Source of the DNA: a virus
Direction: 5' to 3' (one strand)
IMG/VR virus record: IMGVR_UViG_3300025435_001056
Coordinates: 96,001 to 160,000 of that record
DNA: 64,000 nucleotides
Part shown: positions 14,780 to 51,111 of the stretch, in pieces
How the letters are laid out: each line of letters begins with the position of its first letter
How positions within the stretch are numbered: position 1 is the stretch's first letter
Notes under the pieces: generated by a model
What the model was told of the DNA's origin: nothing
The model's input: only the letters and a program-made list of their open reading frames with translations
The model's database searches: none
Made by a program: the position numbers and the translations under genes

Positions 14780-15322
14780 ATGAAAACAGTAGGACACAAA
14801 TTAGAAAAGTTTACAGTAACCGGCGTTCGTCCAGGACAGCCAGAGGATGCATTTTTTGACATCACCGACGAGTCATTCGCCGGCAAGTGGAAGGTAATTG
14901 TTTACTATCCAAAAGATTTTACATTCGTATGCCCAACTGAAATTGTTGCATATGACAAATTGAATCAGGACTTTGAGGATCGCGATGCAGTCCTGTTGAC
15001 AGGTTCAACCGACAACGAGTTCTGTAAGGTCAGCTGGCAAAAGAGCCACCCAGACTTGATTAATATCAAGCACACACAGTTTGCTGACACACAGCGTGGC
15101 GAGTTATCATTGATTGAGCAGTTGGGAGTATTCTATGCTCCTGCCGGTGCCGCACTTCGTGCCACATTTATTGTTGATCCAGACAACACAATCCAACACG
15201 TTACAGTCAACAACTTGGATGTGGGTCGTAGCCCAGAAGAAACACTTCGTGTGTTGGATGCGTTACAAACAGGCGAATTGTGTGCTTGTAACCGCACCGT
15301 AGGCGGAGCCACTTTATCGTGA
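14780..15322 (+). CDS. ahpC: Peroxiredoxin AhpC
   Basis: YPKDFTFVCPTE motif, GR..EE.LR.LDALQ, C-terminal Cys. Confidence 0.95.
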   Translation: MKTVGHKLEKFTVTGVRPGQPEDAFFDITDESFAGKWKVIVYYPKDFTFVCPTEIVAYDKLNQDFEDRDAVLLTGSTDNEFCKVSWQKSHPDLINIKHTQFADTQRGELSLIEQLGVFYAPAGAALRATFIVDPDNTIQHVTVNNLDVGRSPEETLRVLDALQTGELCACNRTVGGATLS

Positions 15323-15522
15323 GCGATGATGCTGTACGCAGTCTGGCCAAGGCCGTCAGTTGGCGGGTCACCGGAACCATTGATACTTTCATTATCAGTT
15401 GGATCATAACCGGTGAACCCTTGATTGCCAGTGGGATTGCGTTTACAGAAATCATGACCAAAATAGCATTGTTTTGGGCCCATGAACGGGTCTGGAACCG
15501 AATACAATGGGGAAAGAAATGA
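15319..15522 (+). CDS. DUF2061 small membrane protein
   Basis: RSL.KA.SWR...T.DT...HER.W..I.WG pattern. Confidence 0.75.
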   Translation: MSDDAVRSLAKAVSWRVTGTIDTFIISWIITGEPLIASGIAFTEIMTKIALFWAHERVWNRIQWGKK

Positions 15523-16037
15523 GTTGGATAGATACTATCAAGGAAGCATTACCAGATTATGCCAAAGACATAAAATTAAATCTGGATTCAGTTATTAAAA
15601 GAAGTACCTTAACAGATGAAGTTGCTAATGCGTGTGCGTTAGCCGCGGCGTTTGCTACAGGTAATGGTAAATTAATTACATTTGTTAGCAGTAATTTTAC
15701 AGACGAACAAACTGTTGTTCGTGATGCCGCACTTACAGCGGCAAGTTTAATGGCAATGACAAATAGTTGGTACCCCTATGTTGAAATGGCCGACGATCCT
15801 GCGTTAAAAGGCTTACCTGCTCAACTCAGGATGAACGCTATTGCTAGCCACGGTGGTACAACTAAGGCTAATTTTGAAGCATTTAGTTTGGCCGCAAGCA
15901 TTGTGGGCAAGTGTCATTTCTGTGTCAAGGCACACTACGAAGGTCTCAAAAAGATGGGTTACACAGTAGAACAGTTGCGTGACATTGGTCGTATTGCCGC
16001 GGTAATCAACTCGGTGGCCAAGGTGTTGAATTCGTAA
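15519..16037 (+). CDS. ahpD: Alkylhydroperoxidase AhpD
   Basis: LPDYAKDIKLNL and AASIVGKCHFCVKAH (CxxC) motifs. Confidence 0.9.
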   Translation: MSWIDTIKEALPDYAKDIKLNLDSVIKRSTLTDEVANACALAAAFATGNGKLITFVSSNFTDEQTVVRDAALTAASLMAMTNSWYPYVEMADDPALKGLPAQLRMNAIASHGGTTKANFEAFSLAASIVGKCHFCVKAHYEGLKKMGYTVEQLRDIGRIAAVINSVAKVLNS

Positions 16038-16539: not shown

Positions 16540-17424
16540 ATGAGTGTAATCATACTGACAAAACTGGATCGTAACGAATACGAATCGACTCGTTTAGTTG
16601 AAAGTTTTGCGGCCAAGGGCATTGAAGCTCGTATGTGCCATCCCGACGACTTTGATATCATTGTGGATCTCGACATACATAAGGGCATCAAGTACAAGGG
16701 CGAAGATCTAGAACTGCCCAAACTGGTCCTGGTGCGGTTGGGTGCCGGCATACTGCCATTCCAACTGGCAGTGGTGCGTCATTTTGAACAGGCTGGGATT
16801 CCTTGTATCAACGGTAGTTTGCCTATAGAAACGGTCAAGGACAAGTTGCGTAGTAGCCAAATCTTAAGTCGATCAGGTATTCCTATTCCCAACACCATGA
16901 TGGTGCGATTACCCATAGACGATGGACTAGTGGAAACAAACATTGGCTTTCCCTGTGTGGTCAAGGTTGTAACCGGTTCGTACGGTGAAGGTGTTTATCT
17001 TTGCGAACGAAAACGCGACTACAAGAAGTTGATGGAGTTTGTGGACAACCTGGGCAACAAAAAAACCATGATAGTGCAGGAATACCTGGGTGAACGACCT
17101 GGTGAAGACCTGCGAGTCTTGGTCATAGGCGGCAAGGTCATAGGTGCCATGCGCCGTACCGCACCCGAAGGTGATTTCCGTGCCAACATCACCAACGGCG
17201 GCACTGGCGAAAACTTTGAAGTCACAGAAGAAATCGACTACATTGCCAGAAAAACAGCTCGATCTCTAAATTTAGACATTGCTGGTGTTGATTTGTTGTT
17301 TGACAAGCGTGGATTCCGTGTGTGTGAAGCCAACTCAAATCCTGGTTTTATTGGCTTTGAAAGATTCTGTGGCGTAGATGTAGCAGATTTAATCACGGAA
17401 TATATCAAGTTCCGCACACAGTAA
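16540..17424 (+). CDS. rimK: RimK-family ATP-grasp alpha-L-glutamate ligase
   Basis: DK.RS.Q.L, G.P.VVK...GS.G.GV, QEY, DLRVLVIG, FRAN...GG, GVDLL and EANSNPG motifs. Confidence 0.9.
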   Translation: MSVIILTKLDRNEYESTRLVESFAAKGIEARMCHPDDFDIIVDLDIHKGIKYKGEDLELPKLVLVRLGAGILPFQLAVVRHFEQAGIPCINGSLPIETVKDKLRSSQILSRSGIPIPNTMMVRLPIDDGLVETNIGFPCVVKVVTGSYGEGVYLCERKRDYKKLMEFVDNLGNKKTMIVQEYLGERPGEDLRVLVIGGKVIGAMRRTAPEGDFRANITNGGTGENFEVTEEIDYIARKTARSLNLDIAGVDLLFDKRGFRVCEANSNPGFIGFERFCGVDVADLITEYIKFRTQ

Positions 17425-44385: not shown

Positions 44386-44423
44386 AATCATAGTGTTATC
44401 GTAATCTAGGTATATAATTGCCT

Positions 44424-45107
44424 ATGAAACTAAAAAGTTTTGGATGTAGTTTTATCTTTGGTTCAGAACTGGCCGATGATGGGCATGGTGGACCGTATGC
44501 TACGCCTAGTCAGTTGACTTGGCCTGCACATTTAGCTAGTTATTTAAATCGTCAATACGAATGCTATGCTCGTCCAGGGTCTGGGAATCTACAGATATTA
44601 GAAAGTATCTTAAATCAAGCAGCCACCAGTACCAGTTCGGATTTATTTGTTATTGGATGGACCTGGATCGATCGATTTGATTACTACCCAACAAATCCCA
44701 ACACGCCTAGTCGCAGTCCTTGGCGTACTATTATGCCGGTAGATACCGATACAGTAGCTCAAGTTTACTATAGAAATCTACATTCAGAATATCGTGACAA
44801 ACTTGTTTCTTTGGCCAATATCAAATTGGCCATTGATACATTACAACAACGACAAATTCCCTTTGTGATGACCTACATGGATCAACTGTTGTTTGATCAG
44901 CAGTGGCATATTACCCCGGCTGTGATCGAACTACAAACCTATGTGCAACCTTTTATGAAAAATTTTGATGGACAAACATTTTTAGAATGGAGCAGGGCCA
45001 ATGATTATCCAGAAACTGCGGCTTGGCATCCTTTAGAAGAAGCACACCGAGCCGCATCTGATTTTATGATTAAAGTTTTTGATAAACAAAATACAGGCGA
45101 TTGTTAG
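44424..45107 (+). CDS. SGNH-hydrolase-like hypothetical protein
   Basis: FGCSF..G, PGSGN, WT..DR, HPLE.AH; same architecture as 38907..39692. Confidence 0.55.
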   Translation: MKLKSFGCSFIFGSELADDGHGGPYATPSQLTWPAHLASYLNRQYECYARPGSGNLQILESILNQAATSTSSDLFVIGWTWIDRFDYYPTNPNTPSRSPWRTIMPVDTDTVAQVYYRNLHSEYRDKLVSLANIKLAIDTLQQRQIPFVMTYMDQLLFDQQWHITPAVIELQTYVQPFMKNFDGQTFLEWSRANDYPETAAWHPLEEAHRAASDFMIKVFDKQNTGDC

Positions 45108-45798
45108 CATCCTTCTTGAATTCCAATAGTTTGAGATTAAACAGTTCGGCAAACTCATTTACTAGCTCAAACGACCAGGGAAAAATATCCACATACGGTC
45201 CTGTTTTATGGGTCACTCCGGGGTTAGCACGCAGATAAAAACGTCCACCCGTTTTAAGCAGATCCACGCAGTGTCCAAAACGAGCTTCGATTTCATCTTG
45301 GCTGTTAAAATTGATAGATCCCAAGGCCATGATCACATCGTACTTGTGCTTTACACGGTATTCGAGAATATCTACCTGATAGTCAGCTGCGTCATTGTAA
45401 GGATCAATGCCCACTAAATTTTGAATACGGCCTTTGAATGGATGATACCCACAGCCCACATCCAGTACAGCTTCGGGATTGAGTTTGTTGATTTCTTCTG
45501 CTAGTTGCCAACCAGTGTGATTGTAATCATCCGTACGCGGTTTCCAAATTTCCCCAAAAAAGCGCAGAATGTAGCGTTCGCTGATGGTGTCTACAATTTT
45601 GAGCAACGGGCCGTTGAAGCCGCAGTCTTCCAACATGAGTTCAGCTTCTATCGTATCCTTGAACTTGCGATAACGAGCCGGCGTCCAAGGCAGTTGATCT
45701 ACCTCAGTGTCGACGTCAATAGAAATATTCTTATACTTGGGTAAATTAAAAGTATCTTGTAAATTTTTTGTAATTAGGTTAAAAATTTTGGTATTCAT
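45070..45798 (-). CDS. Class I SAM-dependent methyltransferase
   Basis: VLDVGCG, GID and YDVI motifs. Confidence 0.8.
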   Translation of the reverse strand: MNTKIFNLITKNLQDTFNLPKYKNISIDVDTEVDQLPWTPARYRKFKDTIEAELMLEDCGFNGPLLKIVDTISERYILRFFGEIWKPRTDDYNHTGWQLAEEINKLNPEAVLDVGCGYHPFKGRIQNLVGIDPYNDAADYQVDILEYRVKHKYDVIMALGSINFNSQDEIEARFGHCVDLLKTGGRFYLRANPGVTHKTGPYVDIFPWSFELVNEFAELFNLKLLEFKKDANNRLYFVYQKL

Positions 45799-45889
45799 TA
45801 AAAATTTTCCGTTTTAGGTAAATAATTTTACAAAGAGCTTAAAAATTTTAGGCCACTTGTAAATTCATATAACTATTTAAGGAGATTTT

Positions 45890-46585
45890 ATGAACTCAAA
45901 AGAATTTGTTGCCAAGATCGTGGCCGATAACCAAGCCCTGTTTCAAGCAAGCCAGCACAATGTTCGGGCTTACTTTGACAGTAAGCCAGCTCAAGAAGAA
46001 CTGGTAGAGCACTTTATTGGCCGTATGGTCAATGAGCGTATGAACATGGTTGAGATCAGCCAAGCTATTGCTACCATGCCTGCCGATGCAGATCCTGTAG
46101 AATTACAGTTGTTGACACAACAGGCTGCCGACGAAGCTGTTCATTTCCGTCTTGTTAAAGAAGTTATTGAACACATTCAAGGTGCACCAGTTGATGTAGA
46201 AGCCGCCATTGCTCGCGAAGCCGCTAAACCAACTGCCAAAGGTGCTGGTTTATTGGCCAAGTACGGTGCAGAGAATGATCGAGTGGCTCTTGCCGCTTAT
46301 CAGTTGGTTGCCGAAGGTCGCGCCGAAGCTGTTTGGAACACTATGGCCGAGTGCATTGAAGATGAATTTATTAGTAAAAGTTATGCCAAAATTGCCCGGG
46401 ATGAAGGTTTCCACAGCAAGATTGGTGCTCGTAAGCTAGAGCAGTTAGTTACAGATGCAGAAGTTGCTGCTCGAGTTGAAACATTGGTTGCCGCTATGCG
46501 TAAAGACTTGTATGAAATTTCATGCCGGAACACTGTAGCAGCTGAAGCTGGCAAAGAGCTAGTGGCAGACGCATACGGTTGGTAA
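45890..46585 (+). CDS. Ferritin-like diiron-carboxylate protein
   Basis: E...DEAVH...E...DEGFH twin ExxH motifs; SD aaggag; TAAATA at 45819. Confidence 0.8.
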   Translation: MNSKEFVAKIVADNQALFQASQHNVRAYFDSKPAQEELVEHFIGRMVNERMNMVEISQAIATMPADADPVELQLLTQQAADEAVHFRLVKEVIEHIQGAPVDVEAAIAREAAKPTAKGAGLLAKYGAENDRVALAAYQLVAEGRAEAVWNTMAECIEDEFISKSYAKIARDEGFHSKIGARKLEQLVTDAEVAARVETLVAAMRKDLYEISCRNTVAAEAGKELVADAYGW

Positions 46586-46586
46586 T

Positions 46587-47147
46587 TTGAAAATAGGACT
46601 CACTCAGCGGATCCTAAACTTCAGAGGGCGGGCGTATGACTCAATTGAGCATGGTTGGTATTCCTACTTGAAAGAGCATACGCTTGTTTTTGTTCCCAAT
46701 CGATTAGATCAGGATTTTGAATCAGTAGCACAAGAAGTAGATTGTCTTATTATCACCGGTGGCGATGATCGTTTGATCAGACGCACCACAGAATTACAAT
46801 TAGCCACAGCAGTAATAAAACAACAAAAACCTATTTTGGGTGTATGTCATGGAGCATTTTTGCTGACTGATGTGTTTGGCGGTATAGTCGGTCGTAAAGA
46901 CGGACATAGAGATGGAATTGAACATGTGGTCCGGTATTGTGAGCAGGATTATGTGGTCAACAGTTTTCACGGACTTGCAATTGAATCGGCACCACCCACA
47001 GCACAAGTACTGGCTCGAGACCCCGATGGCACTTGCGAATCCTGGATTGATGGGTTGGTAGCAGCAGTAGTATGGCATCCAGAACGTATGGCAAACCCCT
47101 GGTTGCCAACAGAAATACAAAATTTAATATTCAAGGACAACAAATGA
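46587..47147 (+). CDS. Class I glutamine amidotransferase / peptidase C26-like
   Basis: ITGG.D, PILGVCHG, VNSFH, WHPE (intact Cys-His-Glu triad). Confidence 0.85.
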   Translation: MKIGLTQRILNFRGRAYDSIEHGWYSYLKEHTLVFVPNRLDQDFESVAQEVDCLIITGGDDRLIRRTTELQLATAVIKQQKPILGVCHGAFLLTDVFGGIVGRKDGHRDGIEHVVRYCEQDYVVNSFHGLAIESAPPTAQVLARDPDGTCESWIDGLVAAVVWHPERMANPWLPTEIQNLIFKDNK

Positions 47148-48118
47148 AAAAATTATTAGCGGTATTATTATTAATCCCAACCCTGGCCATGGCCTGGGAA
47201 CCTATATATCCAGTTTCTGTAATTGTGGGCAACACTCCCGGAGCTGGCAACGAAATTGCCTTTAGAGCCCTGGCAGCTGTTGTGCAAAAAAACAATCCCA
47301 AGTTTGTGTATGTGGTCGAAAACAAACCCGGTGCTGATTCAGTAGTGGCTCAAAATTATTTCCTACAGCAACCAGCCGATGGATACACCATCAATCTACC
47401 CAGCCATATGAGTACCTATGTGACTAATGACATCTGGGAAGCCAAGATCAAAAAGTTTAACTACGATTCATTCATTGATGTCATGACCATGGGCAAGAGT
47501 CCATTGGTCCTGGTTGCCAATGCAAAAAGCAAGATCAATACTCCGGTTGAATTTATTAGATTAATTGCTACAACTACCCGTCCTATTAATGTTGCGGTAG
47601 GCGGTGGTGCTCATAGAACTGCCTACGAATATCTTATGATGAAGGCCCATGGCAACGCTGACCTGGTCAAACCTATCAAGTTCAATGGTCCTTTACCGGC
47701 AGTGACCAGTGTTGCATCATTTGATACCGCCGGAGGAACAGAATTTGGTATTATGCCCATTGCTGTGGCTCGGCCATTGGTTGAGGCTGGCAAGGTCAAG
47801 CCCATTGGATTTACAGGCACACACCGCATGCCACAATATCCCAATGTTCCCTTGTTAAATGAATGGGTTCCCGGTATCAATGTATATGCCGCTTGGTCAA
47901 TAGAATTACCCAAAGGCACGCCTCAAGAAGTAGTCGATTGGTATCAGCAGAAGTTTAGTGCGGCTGTACATAGTGCGGAGTATAAAAAGTGGTGCGAACA
48001 AAATGTGGTCTTTGTGGATGAGTCTGAACTAAAGCCAGCTGGACTACGCCGGCACATGGAGGAACTGCGTGCTACATTCTTGCCTGTGTTGAAAACTATT
48101 GATTTAAGCAAAGAATGA
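47144..48118 (+). CDS. Tripartite tricarboxylate transporter substrate-binding protein (Bug/TctC)
   Basis: Signal peptide; VENKPGA, ADGYT, G.VK.IG.T...R....P.VP and P.GTP..VV motifs. Confidence 0.85.
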   Translation: MKKLLAVLLLIPTLAMAWEPIYPVSVIVGNTPGAGNEIAFRALAAVVQKNNPKFVYVVENKPGADSVVAQNYFLQQPADGYTINLPSHMSTYVTNDIWEAKIKKFNYDSFIDVMTMGKSPLVLVANAKSKINTPVEFIRLIATTTRPINVAVGGGAHRTAYEYLMMKAHGNADLVKPIKFNGPLPAVTSVASFDTAGGTEFGIMPIAVARPLVEAGKVKPIGFTGTHRMPQYPNVPLLNEWVPGINVYAAWSIELPKGTPQEVVDWYQQKFSAAVHSAEYKKWCEQNVVFVDESELKPAGLRRHMEELRATFLPVLKTIDLSKE

Positions 48119-48735
48119 AATATATCTTTTGTGCAGGTGCACCTGGCTCAAAATGGAGCAGTCTAATCAAAAACATCTACTACAGCCCCGATGTGGATCG
48201 TTCGGACTATTCGGATGACAGAACCTACTGGCACGATGCTCCGGGACAGTTGGAACTCATGCACCTAGGTGCTTATTTTGATCCTGGCATGGAGTTTGGC
48301 GACTGGTTTGATCGTTTGGACCAATATACTCGGGCCGAATGTGAAGCTGAATTTGACCGCCCGTTTTCGGGCACAGGTATTCGTATCATCAAAAGCCATG
48401 TGTTTGCACATCACATAGATTTTATCAAACAGACCTGGCCTGATTGCCCTGTTATCCTGGCACATCGCAACAATGATGCCGCACTGGGCTGGTGGGTCAA
48501 GTGTGGACACTTTAATATTACCTACCCGCTATATGATAAGTACTATCGAGATCTGCGAACCATGGCTGGCATAATTGCCAATCAAAATCAGGATATACAA
48601 AAAGCATGGGATCATCACAAGGGTAAAATACCTCCAAATAATCTTGCGTTGGCAGATATTTTAGGAATCAAATTGCCGCCTGATAATTATTTTCAAGACT
48701 ACAGACAATCGGACCTAGGAGTAAAGGTAATATGA
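48115..48735 (+). CDS. Hypothetical P-loop/sulfotransferase-like protein
   Basis: N-terminal GAPGSKWS; IIKSH motif. Confidence 0.55.
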   Translation: MKYIFCAGAPGSKWSSLIKNIYYSPDVDRSDYSDDRTYWHDAPGQLELMHLGAYFDPGMEFGDWFDRLDQYTRAECEAEFDRPFSGTGIRIIKSHVFAHHIDFIKQTWPDCPVILAHRNNDAALGWWVKCGHFNITYPLYDKYYRDLRTMAGIIANQNQDIQKAWDHHKGKIPPNNLALADILGIKLPPDNYFQDYRQSDLGVKVI

Positions 48736-49418
48736 AAAATCAAGCAGATTACGACAGCAGTTGGCAATGGTGTGTGGATCACAGTTGTTATCATTTTGAT
48801 AACACTCGCATTGACCAGCCTGGTGAATGGTTTCGGGTCTTGGGTCGTTTTGAAGGCAACTGGACCGACGAAGTGACACAGGCTCAAGGAAAACCCATAA
48901 CTTGGGCTACCCGTAAATTTTACGGCAATGACGATGATACCGTAAGTCCCATGTTAGCTCAAGAAGAAAACGATCTTAGAACTACAGGTGCTCCGGTAGA
49001 TCTTGAACTGACCGACGCAGTATTTGATATCACGCCTTATCCTACCTTGATACGCATGAGTGAATACTTTGGTATAGCAGATGCCAAGATTCGCATGCAT
49101 TATCAAAGACCAGGGCAGATGTTCAACCTGCACATAGACAAATTGCAGGATCGTTGTCCTGAAGATCCTGAACAAGTGATCAGAATGACCATCATGCTAG
49201 CCGACTGGGCACCTGGACAATTTTACTCTTACGGTACCTGTAACTACTCACACTGGCGTGCCGGAGATGTTCATATCTTTGATTGGGCCAATGTGCCACA
49301 TGCCACGGCCAATGCCAGTCGCCACATGCGCCCGGTGCTACAGATCACTGGACTCAAAACCGAACACACTAGAAAATTATTAGAATACGCAGGACCCGAA
49401 GCCAGATATCAGGTATGA
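48732..49418 (+). CDS. Putative 2OG-Fe(II)/cupin dioxygenase
   Basis: PGQMFNLHID...PHATAN...R (HxD...H facial triad). Confidence 0.7.
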   Translation: MKNQADYDSSWQWCVDHSCYHFDNTRIDQPGEWFRVLGRFEGNWTDEVTQAQGKPITWATRKFYGNDDDTVSPMLAQEENDLRTTGAPVDLELTDAVFDITPYPTLIRMSEYFGIADAKIRMHYQRPGQMFNLHIDKLQDRCPEDPEQVIRMTIMLADWAPGQFYSYGTCNYSHWRAGDVHIFDWANVPHATANASRHMRPVLQITGLKTEHTRKLLEYAGPEARYQV

Positions 49419-50050
49419 CACAAACAAAAAAACTGTTGATCCTGACCGGTCCACAGGGTGCAGGCAATCACATGTGGTCAAAAATCTTTGCTCTGTATCC
49501 AAGGACCTTTGGCTGGCAGGCTCTGCTGGACAAATACTGGATTGGGCATGATCAAGAACCCTTTGCTGAATACTGGGAAGATCCTGAAAAATTAAAAGAC
49601 TTTGATTGGTCTGGTCACGATTACTTTGTGACCAGTATCAGCGTGCCTTACATGCTGAATGGTGAACGTACCATACCTCGTTTTGGTCCATTCATACAGG
49701 CAGTTCGGGCAGCCGGAGTACAGATCCAATTTGCCATTCTAGGCCGAGATGCCAACATACTTGAAATGCAAGAAACTCGTGTGCGTGGAGAGCCTACCTT
49801 GCATCTAGCTGTTAACGAGCTGGCCAAACTATCTGGGCAGATGCCACAATTTCTCAGTTACGAATTGTTGCATTTATATGGCCGTGACTATCTACAACAA
49901 TTAAATACCATACTCGAGTTTCCTGTGGTTCATACAGATCCCAGGATTAACGAAATCATAAAGGAAGACGCAAATACCAAATATTTTCAACCTGTAGAAC
50001 ATCATTGGGTAGACGATTTGGCCAAACATACTTCAAGGAAATGGCGATGA
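49415..50050 (+). CDS. Hypothetical P-loop/sulfotransferase-like protein
   Basis: LILTGPQGAGNH; SYE motif. Confidence 0.55.
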   Translation: MTQTKKLLILTGPQGAGNHMWSKIFALYPRTFGWQALLDKYWIGHDQEPFAEYWEDPEKLKDFDWSGHDYFVTSISVPYMLNGERTIPRFGPFIQAVRAAGVQIQFAILGRDANILEMQETRVRGEPTLHLAVNELAKLSGQMPQFLSYELLHLYGRDYLQQLNTILEFPVVHTDPRINEIIKEDANTKYFQPVEHHWVDDLAKHTSRKWR

Positions 50051-50883
50051 CACAACGAATTTTAATCATGGGTTTACCAGGATCGGGCAAAACAACTCTA
50101 GCAGGTGTTTTAAAAAAATACTTAGAAGAGCATGGCGATATCAACTATACTCGAGCATTAAACGAATGCATCGGACCCGGAGTCATGGTTAATTGGTTCA
50201 ATGCTGATGATGTCCGTCGCAAGTACAACGACTGGGACTTTAGTCAGGATGGTCGCATTCGTCAGAGCCTGCGCATGTTTCAGTTCAGCATGGAGTCCGG
50301 AGGCGACTATGTGATCTGTGACTTTGTTGCACCCTTAGTAGAACAGCGTAACAACTTTAAGGCTGATTGGACCATCTGGGTAGACACTATCCGTGAAGGA
50401 CGTTATGCTGATACCAATCGAGCCTTTGTGGAACCTGAACAGTACGACTTCCGCATTATCGAGCAGAATGCAGAAAAATGGGCTGAATTTATTGGTGAAC
50501 ACATTGTAGCCAATCGTCGTCGTCCGGTCTTTGATTGGCAGAAGGAAACTGTACAGATGCTGGGCCGTTGGCAACCCTGGCATGACGGACATCGTGCCCT
50601 GTTTGAACGCTTGATTGCTCGCACCGGGCAGGTAGTAATTCAAATTCGTGATTGCCAGGGCTGGCAAGGTTCGAACCCATTTGAAATAAAAAAAGTTAAA
50701 GAATTTATTCGACGCGACCTGGATCCAATCTATCAAGGACAATACGAAATACAAGTAGTTCCTAACATTGTACATATTGGATGGGGCCGTGGAGTTGGTT
50801 ATACGTCGGGCAAAGAAACGTTTGACGAAAGCATTACTGACATAAGTGCTACCAAAATTCGTCGAGAAATGGGCCTTGAGTGA
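50047..50883 (+). CDS. Adenylylsulfate-kinase-like domain fused to HxGH nucleotidyltransferase
   Basis: GLPGSGKTT, NADDVR, DFS..GR.RQ; GRWQPWHDGH...ISATKIR. Confidence 0.8.
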   Translation: MTQRILIMGLPGSGKTTLAGVLKKYLEEHGDINYTRALNECIGPGVMVNWFNADDVRRKYNDWDFSQDGRIRQSLRMFQFSMESGGDYVICDFVAPLVEQRNNFKADWTIWVDTIREGRYADTNRAFVEPEQYDFRIIEQNAEKWAEFIGEHIVANRRRPVFDWQKETVQMLGRWQPWHDGHRALFERLIARTGQVVIQIRDCQGWQGSNPFEIKKVKEFIRRDLDPIYQGQYEIQVVPNIVHIGWGRGVGYTSGKETFDESITDISATKIRREMGLE

Positions 50884-51094
50884 TACCGCTTTACAAAGTT
50901 TGGTTAAAGCCATCAGTTGGCAAGTAACTGGATCCATTGACACTTTTGTTATCAGCTGGTTGATTACTGGTCAGGTGTTACTGGCCAGTGGTATAGCCTT
51001 TACTGAAATTATAACCAAGGTCTTTTTGTTTTGGGCCCACGAGCGAGTATGGAATAAGATTGCGTGGGGTATTGACTTGGTTGACAAAAAATAG
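50876..51094 (+). CDS. DUF2061 small membrane protein (paralog of 15319..15522)
   Basis: SL.KAISW...GSIDT...HERVW.KI.WG; probable TTG start. Confidence 0.7.
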   Translation: MSDTALQSLVKAISWQVTGSIDTFVISWLITGQVLLASGIAFTEIITKVFLFWAHERVWNKIAWGIDLVDKK

Positions 51095-51100
51095 TATAAT
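51072..51100 (+). promoter_or_regulatory. sigma70-like promoter
   Basis: TTGACT-17-TATAAT. Confidence 0.7.
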
Positions 51101-51111
51101 TAGTATAGTAC

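Follow-up and report, generated by a model that had tools for sequence, protein, structure and literature searches.

The 64,000-nucleotide stretch of DNA analysed here (the window) comprises bases 96001-160000 of the 176.6-kb IMG/VR record IMGVR_UViG_3300025435_001056, which is estimated to be 51% complete and whose source is a giant T4-like freshwater phage. The subject of this study is a compact gene cluster at positions 45070-51094 of the window, in a region flanked by genes for PhoH, DnaJ and ClpA. The cluster consists of eight co-directional genes (g05 to g12) and one divergent methyltransferase-like gene (g04), at the positions given in an initial annotation made from the sequence. Comparison with related viral loci shows that five of these genes, encoding a methyltransferase-like protein, a TctC solute-binding protein, an oxygenase-like protein and two sulfotransferase-like proteins, form a constant unit; a kinase-nucleotidyltransferase gene often, but not always, adjoins it. 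The DNA of the region was found solely in freshwater and lake metagenomes (sequencing-run lookup), and a nucleotide search of cultured phages returned no DNA-level match to it. The window contains no tRNA.

On the left, the cluster is adjoined by g03 (44418-45107, + strand), a candidate SGNH/GDSL-like hydrolase of 229 amino acids (aa) that overlaps g04 tail to tail. The g04 gene (45070-45798, - strand) encodes a class-I S-adenosylmethionine (SAM) methyltransferase-like protein of 242 aa and is separated from the operon by a divergent control region (45799-45889). The + strand genes begin with two optional members, g05 (45890-46585), a candidate ferritin-like diiron-carboxylate protein of 231 aa, and g06 (46587-47147), a class-I glutamine amidotransferase/peptidase C26 of the gamma-glutamyl hydrolase type. 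These are followed by g07 (47144-48118; exported TctC/Bug-family solute-binding protein, 324 aa), g08 (48115-48735; sulfotransferase-like, 206 aa), g09 (48732-49418; probable 2-oxoglutarate (2OG)/Fe(II) oxygenase-like protein, 228 aa) and g10 (49415-50050; a second sulfotransferase-fold protein, 211 aa). The 278-aa product of g11 (50047-50883) joins an APS-kinase-family domain (residues 1-158; APS, adenosine 5'-phosphosulfate) to a minimal HxGH nucleotidyltransferase (residues 165-278), and g12 (50876-51094) encodes a small DUF2061 membrane protein. Two overlapping sigma-70-like promoters at 51072-51109 (+ strand), ahead of the DnaJ gene, mark the right boundary.

Translational coupling had been proposed for nearly all junctions. 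It stands for five of them (g06/g07, g07/g08, g08/g09, g09/g10 and g10/g11), which are true ATGA overlaps. The g05/g06 junction, however, reads TAA-T-TTG and has no ATGA overlap, and the extent of the g11/g12 overlap depends on the start of g12, being 8 nt from TTG 50876 or 38 nt from the alternative GTG 50846. The TTG is the preferred start, because a DUF2061 paralogue at 15319-15522 of the window begins MSDDA.... The catalytic motifs noticed at the outset are all present and intact, namely the twin ExxH of g05, GVCHG and WHPE of g06, HxD...H of g09 and the Walker A and HxGH motifs of g11.

Conservation of the cluster across viral loci

An alignment-based scan of viral contigs yielded 63 TctC-anchored loci with enough flank for comparison. 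The methyltransferase gene g04 is present in all 63, g09 in 59, g08 and g10 in 56 each, g11 in 37, g03 in 28, g05 in 16 and g06 in 15. Four genes (g04, g08, g09 and g10) thus accompany TctC in 89-100% of the loci despite 40-75% protein divergence, and TctC keeps these companions even where the locus has been rearranged (loci L036 and L022). A second, g11-anchored set comprised the best 80 of at least 599 viral contigs with 73-88% identity to g11; here g12 follows g11 in 36 of 80 loci, g04, g07 and g08 occur in about 14, and g05 and g06 in 3. From these two sets of counts the constant unit is g04 with, divergently, g07-g08-g09-g10, and g11-g12 is a separate and far more widespread pair that often, not always, adjoins it. 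The g05-g06 pair is optional, being seen in roughly one locus in four. Two near-complete phage records carry the core with no adjacent g11, and each of them has a g11 relative elsewhere. The genes had been suspected to belong together in one combination, and co-conservation bears this out for the core, which is a real unit across the TctC-anchored set and matches no characterised operon. It does not extend to a single fixed pathway of all eight genes, given the optional g05 and g06 and the many other settings of g11-g12. The conserved TctC/sulfotransferase/oxygenase/methyltransferase core is new, and hundreds of lake-derived giant-phage contigs carry it together with its dedicated donor-supply gene.

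The other settings of g11 are varied. Its neighbours include a 587-aa sulfotransferase (Sulfotransfer_3, 1.6e-20), RCC1-repeat proteins, radical SAM/SPASM enzymes, a carbamoyltransferase, PTPS, UDP-galactopyranose mutase and neck and tail-fibre genes, and a sulfotransferase of one of three unrelated families is found in 30 of the 80 g11-anchored phage loci. Two recurrent groups can be distinguished. In one (L050, L052-L054, L063, L066, L071 and L080), g11 lies beside tandem RCC1-repeat proteins, the 587-aa protein, the N-terminal third of which is a sulfotransferase domain, and a tail fibre bearing an S74 chaperone domain, which hints at modification of a virion fibre or glycan in those phages. 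In the other (L003-L005, L011, L020, L021, L032, L043, L060, L062 and L076), it comes after radical SAM/SPASM genes in multiple copies, an uncharacterised protein of 361 aa, between one and three g03-like genes of the SGNH type and a NodU/CmcH-type carbamoyltransferase.

This variety is what would be expected if the genes shared no pathway, the locus being a hypervariable island of independent accessory genes packed and transcribed together for economy and each acting on a different host process, with TctC in solute capture, g11 in sulfur metabolism and the rest in assorted modifications. Conserved PhoH and DnaJ/ClpA blocks enclose an island whose content differs from phage to phage; g05 and g06 come and go, g11-g12 is found in many unrelated contexts (among neck/tail-fibre, radical SAM, carbamoyltransferase and PTPS genes), and the paralogue of g12 lies within an unrelated pair of AhpC and AhpD genes. 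We nevertheless consider independence improbable, as it leaves unexplained the persistence of four genes beside TctC through divergence and rearrangement and the retention of the stop/start overlaps, and as two sulfotransferase-fold genes with a PAPS-synthase-like gene make a functionally coherent set (PAPS, 3'-phosphoadenosine 5'-phosphosulfate).

The g11 enzyme and the two sulfotransferase-fold proteins

The kinase domain of g11 belongs to the APS-kinase family. Its N-terminal half matches Pfam APS_kinase (PF01583) with 29.1 bits against a cut-off of 21.1 (25.4 bits in the genome scan), and the protein matches the PHROGs kinase family phrog_10255 (1e-44). In an AlphaFold (AF2) model built from 46 diverse homologues (pLDDT 89), the top 13 Foldseek matches are all APS kinases or PAPS synthases. 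By VIA, residues 1-158 align best with 2yvu (Z 17.1, rmsd 2.2, 140 residues aligned), 4rfv (17.0) and 2gks (16.2), against 13.9 for the next family, gluconate kinase, 10.6-10.7 for dephospho-CoA kinase and 10.1 for nicotinamide riboside kinase. Among the 46 homologues the Walker A lysine K15 and R57 are invariant, and F65, R70 and Q73 are at least 90% conserved. The blocks GLPGSGKTT, NADDVR, DFSQDGRIRQ and DFVAP, corresponding to Walker A, D-x-x-R, FS..R and F(V/I)xP, align with those of the canonical kinase in the fusion protein P0231 described below.

The C-terminal domain, a minimal HxGH nucleotidyltransferase of 115 residues, carries the motifs GRWQPWHDGH, GRxVGY and ISATKIR. In the 46 homologues GRxQPxHxGH, GRxxG and ISATxIR are invariant, as are residues R174, Q176, H179, H182, G247, R248 and R272. 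Its H179-D-G-H182 is the HxxH motif common to the whole nucleotidyltransferase superfamily and is therefore unspecific. The motifs GRxQPxHxGH and ISxTxIR constitute the archaeal/NadM signature of nicotinamide mononucleotide adenylyltransferase (NMNAT), and the nearest folds are phosphopantetheine adenylyltransferase (PPAT; 4nah), NadM (2qjt) and M. jannaschii NMNAT (1f9a), at Z ~10. These resemblances would suit a nucleotide-cofactor enzyme, either NadR-like (nicotinamide-riboside kinase/NMN adenylyltransferase) or CoA-synthase-like (PPAT/dephospho-CoA kinase), which would have nothing to do with its sulfotransferase-like neighbours; the latter would rely on host PAPS or do something else. Gene settings also lend themselves to such a function, since a related SAR11 gene pair stands beside enoyl-CoA hydratase and a CoA-binding protein, and Xylella-type phages have a g11 relative among nucleotide-metabolism genes. 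We regard it as very improbable, as the kinase Z scores are clearly higher for APS kinases than for dephospho-CoA or nicotinamide riboside kinases. The NCBIfam NMNAT matches (2e-5) reach only 24.1 bits against a cut-off of 127 and 23.6 against 181, and the domain, with ~50 residues fewer than NMNATs, could hardly accommodate a large second substrate. Moreover, P0231 joins this very domain to a canonical APS kinase.

An exhaustive search returned 1804 g11 relatives, including informative fusions. P0231 combines the g11-type nucleotidyltransferase with a CysC-type APS kinase (PF01583, 5.7e-63), P0249 combines the g11-type kinase with a different nucleotidyltransferase (PF00483), and P0154 has an added DUF4118 membrane domain. 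A database protein of 281 aa, P0264, pairs a g11-type nucleotidyltransferase with part of a chorismate synthase (positions 93-240 of the 327 in the profile) and is probably a chimeric or mis-assembled record, not a meaningful fusion.

The closest known architecture is that of the bifunctional PAPS synthases (human PAPSS1/2, 1x6v; Aquifex Sat-CysC, 2gks), which like g11 have an APS-kinase-family domain and an HxxH-superfamily nucleotidyltransferase in one chain. In the g11 model, 254 residues can be aligned with the PAPS synthase 1x6v (Z 15.9), and the kinase domain with 2gks (Z 16.2). However, PAPS synthases have ~570-620 aa and the predicted g11 protein has 278; unlike them, it has a 115-residue NMNAT/PPAT-like domain, no PUA-like domain, no PF01747 signal and a kinase that lacks the lid. 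The best reading of g11 is a miniature PAPS synthase, in which the small domain would adenylylate sulfate, because the fusion partners, the sulfotransferase neighbours in phages and bacteria and the gene content of SAR11 genomes all agree with it.

The bacterial part of this argument comes from Pelagibacter and many Alphaproteobacteria, which have full-length or split g11 homologues. The g11 relative adjoins a TPR-Sulfotransfer_3 protein (8.8e-42) in Bradyrhizobium and an arylsulfotransferase in Inquilinus and a Rhodospirillaceae genome. All seven Pelagibacter genomes with a split g11-type pair (G001-G007) have Sulfotransfer_3 above the cut-off, five of them at 1e-34 to 1e-40 and the other two more weakly (5e-9 and 1e-5). 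Sat ATP sulfurylase is missing from these seven genomes, which also lack a convincing CysD, and two of the seven are without another good APS-kinase match (one of these has a marginal second match, 1.7e-4). In seven Pelagibacter loci (L137, L139, L140, L142, L145, L157 and L166), the split genes lie in a conserved region with genes for enoyl-CoA hydratase, a CoA-binding protein, a GcvT-family protein, a Rieske protein and SBP56 (methanethiol-oxidase family).

The initial annotation listed g08 and g10 as two P-loop proteins; both are better described as sulfotransferase-fold candidates. For g08 this is suggested by its family, of which 8 of 12 members match Sulfotransfer_3 (PF13469) at E<=0.01 (best 1.2e-5). 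The motifs PGS(K)WS, KSH and R118..D121 are invariant in g08 homologues, and they fit the PAPS 5'-phosphosulfate (PSB) loop, catalytic histidine and 3'-phosphate motif of sulfotransferases. For g10 the evidence is structural. With the AF2 model (pLDDT 84), the top six VIA matches are all sulfotransferases (Z 10.8-9.5, 166-177 residues aligned), including the sulfotransferase domain of an olefin synthase (4gox, 10.8), the tyrosylprotein sulfotransferases TPST2 (10.6) and TPST1 (10.5), 3-OST (9.5) and NDST (9.5). TPST1 is also the best Foldseek match (5e-4), sulfotransferase clusters score 0.94 by Atlas features, and the loop GPQG(A/S)GNH lacks the Walker lysine. Neither protein is taken to be a kinase. 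No Pfam family, the sulfotransferase profiles included, was matched by g10 or by 120 of its homologues, and its 1547 relatives are all "hypothetical". The g08 and g10 family profiles gave nothing significant against PDB sequences. Comparisons by hhalign among g08, g10 and the 587-aa phage sulfotransferase were not significant with these shallow alignments (E 0.45, 0.0024 at a probability of 12%, and 0.4). A protein search of cultured phages returned nothing useful for g10, and g08 was found only in an uncultured marine virus. We conclude with moderate confidence that both g08 and g10 have a sulfotransferase fold, as distinct proteins with putative transfer activity. PAPS generation and sulfotransfer, which had been raised as a possibility, is the chemistry best supported by the family, fold, fusions and neighbours of g11, by the SAR11 gene content, by the profile match of g08 and by the predicted fold of g10.

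The TctC protein, the tailoring genes and a sulfation-centred reading

The g07 product is clearly a TctC/Bug-family protein with a predicted export signal. It matches Pfam TctC (PF03401) at 7e-20 (72.1 bits against a cut-off of 27), has a signal-peptide-like N-terminus (MKKLLAVLLLIPTLAMA) and keeps both glycine-rich binding loops, PGAGNE and GGGAH. As first noted, it occurs without TctA/TctB: TctA (PF01970) has no match in the 176-kb record, itself an estimated 51% of the genome. In this, and in its family match, signal peptide and binding loops, g07 resembles the many orphan Bug genes of bacteria; unlike them, it belongs to a virus-only clade, and its translation is coupled to that of cytoplasmic tailoring enzymes. 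The clade is large and phage-borne (73-100% identity, contigs of up to 456 kb), and the host is not identifiable through TctC, since every close relative is phage-borne. Among cultured phages a protein search for TctC gave nothing useful, with one weak match in an unannotated uncultured record.

The g09 protein is a probable 2OG/Fe(II) oxygenase-like protein, in which H134-x-D136, H190 and R200 are invariant in nine homologues; the HxD...H triad, with an arginine ten positions beyond its distal histidine, is the pattern of 2OG oxygenases. Profile matches short of significance were obtained to Pfam Asp_Arg_Hydrox (0.16, in one member) and, by hhalign, to a SAR11 HalD-like family (E 0.22). The g04 protein has a VLDVGCG motif and only weak NCBIfam CmoB matches (0.006), with no Pfam match. 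In the optional g05, the pattern E...ExxH...E...ExxH includes E82/H85 and E172/H175, which are invariant in the three available sequences, and its Atlas neighbours, which are leads only, are viral 'RNR-family'/ferritin-like clusters, pointing to AurF and DUF455. Outside the core, the frequent neighbour g03 has the motifs FGCSFIFGSE and WHP..AH, is multi-copy in other g11 islands and has no Pfam match.

The amidotransferase-like g06, the other optional gene, matches Peptidase_C26 (4e-16, 59.8 bits against 20.5) and GATase (1e-11, 45.3 bits against 22.8), its Cys-His-Glu triad is intact, and its PDB matches are of the SpuA/PuuD type. Its best NCBIfam match is gamma-glutamyl-CDP-amidate hydrolase (Cj1417, NF045546; 1.1e-14), at 55 bits against a cut-off of 250. 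This enzyme belongs to the O-methyl phosphoramidate (MeOPN) pathway of Campylobacter jejuni (Cj1415-Cj1418), in which the APS-kinase homologue Cj1415 phosphorylates CDP-amidate at the 3'-OH of the NDP-X (X-substituted nucleoside diphosphate) substrate and methyltransferases also take part (PMC11800397). By analogy, the donor made at the phage locus might be a PAPS-like 3'-phospho-NDP-X, such as 3'-phospho-CDP-amidate, instead of PAPS; g11 would carry out nucleotidyl transfer and 3'-phosphorylation, g06 would act like Cj1417, the sulfotransferase folds would transfer the group and g04 would methylate it. Beyond the best named relative of g06 and the precedent of Cj1415, this proposal can draw on the invariable presence of the methyltransferase (63/63 loci) and on SAR11 clusters resembling the MeOPN genes, to whose amidotransferase g06 is 26% identical (1e-13); the PF00483 domain that P0249 joins to a g11-type kinase is of the fold class of the nucleoside triphosphate (NTP) transferase in those clusters. 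We treat it as a genuine rival, if a quite improbable one. The 176-kb record has no glutamine-kinase-type gene (PPDK_N) of the Cj1418 kind, the nucleotidyltransferase fold differs, and g06, far below its family cut-off, is present in just 15/63 core loci and 3/80 g11 loci, so that it is not essential to the function of g11 or the core. The pairing of the g11 nucleotidyltransferase with a CysC-type kinase in P0231, the use of PAPS by the neighbouring sulfotransferase families wherever they have been studied and the greater economy, for so widespread a gene as g11, of a two-domain enzyme needing only sulfate and ATP all favour PAPS.

The SAR11 clusters themselves (L168:242-5050 and L169:432-8643, in Pelagibacter G006 and G005) are where the "full-length APS kinases" of SAR11 reside. 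They contain a PRK05849 glutamine-kinase-like protein (Cj1418-like; 996 and 680 bits) and an APS-kinase homologue of the PRK05541 type, along with a Cj1417-like hydrolase (194 and 115 bits) and two transferases, one for NTPs and one of the LIC12162 family, a content that suggests a phosphoramidate-type surface modification.

Taken together, the region can be read as an accessory module, putatively expressed late, with which giant T4-like phages of fresh water would carry out the sulfation-centred tailoring of an acceptor, an interpretation to which we give an even chance. The initial annotation had suggested a small molecule, a surface glycan or lipid, or a virion decoration as what may be made or modified. 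In such a module g11 would be a self-contained mini PAPS synthase, whose C-terminal HxGH domain would adenylylate sulfate to APS and whose lid-less N-terminal domain, an APS-kinase-family member, would phosphorylate the 3'-OH to give PAPS; with g12 it would form the donor-supply pair for the core. The fold-supported g08 and g10 proteins would transfer the sulfuryl group to the acceptor, g09 would probably install or alter a hydroxyl group and g04 would methylate. In the periplasm the exported g07 protein would bind either the precursor or the product, or else a related carboxylate, perhaps docking on host TctAB, and in a quarter of phages the putative diiron protein g05 and g06 would add oxidation or amide steps.

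Several observations weigh against this reading. For g11, ~16 residues of the APS-kinase lid (KARxG...FTG) are deleted in all g11-type sequences relative to P0231. The C-terminal domain is closest in fold to PPAT and NMNAT enzymes and unlike Sat; it does not have the ~390-aa Sat architecture with its PUA-like domain, and the 176-kb record has no match to Sat-type ATP sulfurylase (PF01747). Since P0249 joins a g11-type kinase to PF00483, kinases of this family may work on other NDP-X donors; g11 relatives occur with no adjoining sulfotransferase in cultured Xylella/Stenotrophomonas phages and most SAR11 genomes. The Sulfotransfer_3 match of g08 itself (4.5e-5, 24.3 bits) lies just below the 27-bit Pfam cut-off, and the sulfotransferase margin of g10 over P-loop kinases (Z <=9.4, 131-148 residues aligned) is modest, at just ~1-2 Z. 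The g09 assignment comes from its motif, with no significant Pfam or PDB match (best relevant PDB profile match 4iw3, E 0.28), as does the diiron assignment of g05, which has neither a Pfam nor a PDB sequence match. The reading also does not account for why a sulfation route in the cytoplasm should include a TctC protein that is exported. Neither a PAP (3'-phosphoadenosine 5'-phosphate) phosphatase nor a sulfate transporter was found in the 176-kb half-genome, which also gave no ATP-sulfurylase, Sulfotransfer_1, PAPS-reductase or inositol-monophosphatase (CysQ-type) match.

Dedicated PAPS supply together with sulfotransferases and tailoring enzymes is of a kind already known. In rhizobial Nod-factor synthesis NodPQ supplies PAPS, NodH is the sulfotransferase, NodS the methyltransferase and NodU a carbamoyltransferase, and the Xanthomonas RaxPQ/RaxST/RaxX system carries out tyrosine sulfation. 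Both act on a molecule that is secreted or lies at the surface and have a dedicated PAPS supply encoded beside a sulfotransferase and other modifying enzymes, and the phage genes would be analogous; carbamoyltransferases occur beside g11 in other phages, and tyrosylprotein sulfotransferases are among the best folds of g10. In contrast to these systems, the phage core includes TctC and a 2OG-oxygenase-like gene, its genes are viral, and there is no sequence-level orthology. The unusual parts are the minimal nucleotidyltransferase in place of ATP sulfurylase, the two viral sulfotransferase-like families and the conserved phage TctC. Lists of phage auxiliary genes frequently include sulfotransferases, but their role has been termed unclear (PMC10580990).

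A more far-reaching version, which we hold to be unlikely, is that giant freshwater phages are self-sufficient for sulfation. A third, hitherto undescribed kind of ATP sulfurylase, the NMNAT-like domain joined to the lid-less APS kinase in g11, would feed two new viral sulfotransferase families, which with the oxygenase and the methyltransferase would yield a sulfated, hydroxylated and methylated molecule handled by, or being, the TctC protein. TctC itself comes into consideration as a target of RaxST/RaxX-like sulfation because g10 resembles tyrosylprotein sulfotransferases. If the main, sulfation-centred reading is right, phages could sulfate their target with no need of host sulfate activation, which would be relevant where the host has no assimilatory pathway. 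ATP sulfurylases would gain a new class in the 115-residue domain, which would also explain the supply of SAR11 sulfotransferases. A phage periplasmic binding protein would be linked to cytoplasmic tailoring, and identification of its ligand would give entry to the product of the module.

The remaining gene, g12, matches Pfam DUF2061 (8e-20). Its paralogue at 15319-15522 is 72% identical in nucleotide sequence and overlaps both neighbours (window 14780-16037), lying between an AhpC-like peroxiredoxin gene (14780-15322, FVCPTE) and an AhpD-like CxxC gene (15507-16037). Because the paralogue sits in an AhpC/AhpD pair, DUF2061 is not tied solely to the kinase-nucleotidyltransferase. The literature search found no paper that ties DUF2061 or phage sulfotransferases to a function.

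Promoters and the leader hairpin

In the divergent control region TAAATA lies on the + strand at 45819-45824, ahead of g05, as the initial annotation had it, and a second copy on the - strand (45879-45874) points at g04. Between the two is a conserved hairpin (45827-45863), followed by an AAGGAG ribosome-binding site and g05. The same double-TAAATA layout recurs in 8-10 related loci. In the window, 15 of the 22 + strand TAAATA sites lie at most 80 nt upstream of a + strand open reading frame (expected 9.75%, P=6e-11), an enrichment well over that of every composition-matched hexamer. Because of this strong enrichment upstream of genes, TAAATA is a credible late-promoter core of the source phage. 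The canonical T4 late promoter TATAAATA is absent from the window.

The hairpin is not significant in its own 71-nt context (z -1.19) and reaches z -2.95 when limited to 41 nt. Seven related loci fold a hairpin at the equivalent position, with z -3.1 to -8.1 in single-sequence folds. Their stems vary (AGAGAGG/CCUCUCU, AUAGC/GCUAU, ACAAGACC/GGUCUUGU and GAGAUAA/UUAUCUU) around a conserved A5U4 centre or loop. RNAalifold on a MAFFT alignment of the leaders gave no consensus structure, because the hairpin arms are out of register in the alignment. The leader hairpin that had been proposed thus appears real, as a predicted structure conserved with covarying stems. It may serve leader stability or regulation, or be an inverted repeat common to both divergent leaders. 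The two TAAATA motifs face each other across 45827-45872; should both act as promoters, the leaders of g04 and g05 would share ~35-45 nt of complementary sequence, hairpin included. In two relatives (L055:5038-5078 and L048:3790-3830) the hairpin is followed by seven U, like an intrinsic terminator or attenuator; the window copy has no U tract.

At the other end, the promoters at 51072-51109 read TTGACT-17-TATAAT and TTGACA-17-TATAGT, each with 11/12 matches. These sigma-70-like sequences are the predicted start of the DnaJ unit and end the cluster. Promoter-like sequences of two classes recur in the window. The first, sigma-70-like TTGACA-N17-TATAAT, is found upstream of 11784, 14780, 19369, 40017, 51112 and 51979, and the second, TAAATA, 11-32 nt before the starts at 16540, 25478, 26894, 31429, 34480, 43281, 54941, 55774, 56594 and 57585. 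A further TAAATA lies inside g10 (49902-49907), 145 nt upstream of the g11 start, and may serve as an internal promoter of the g11-g12 pair, which in other phages behaves as a unit of its own.

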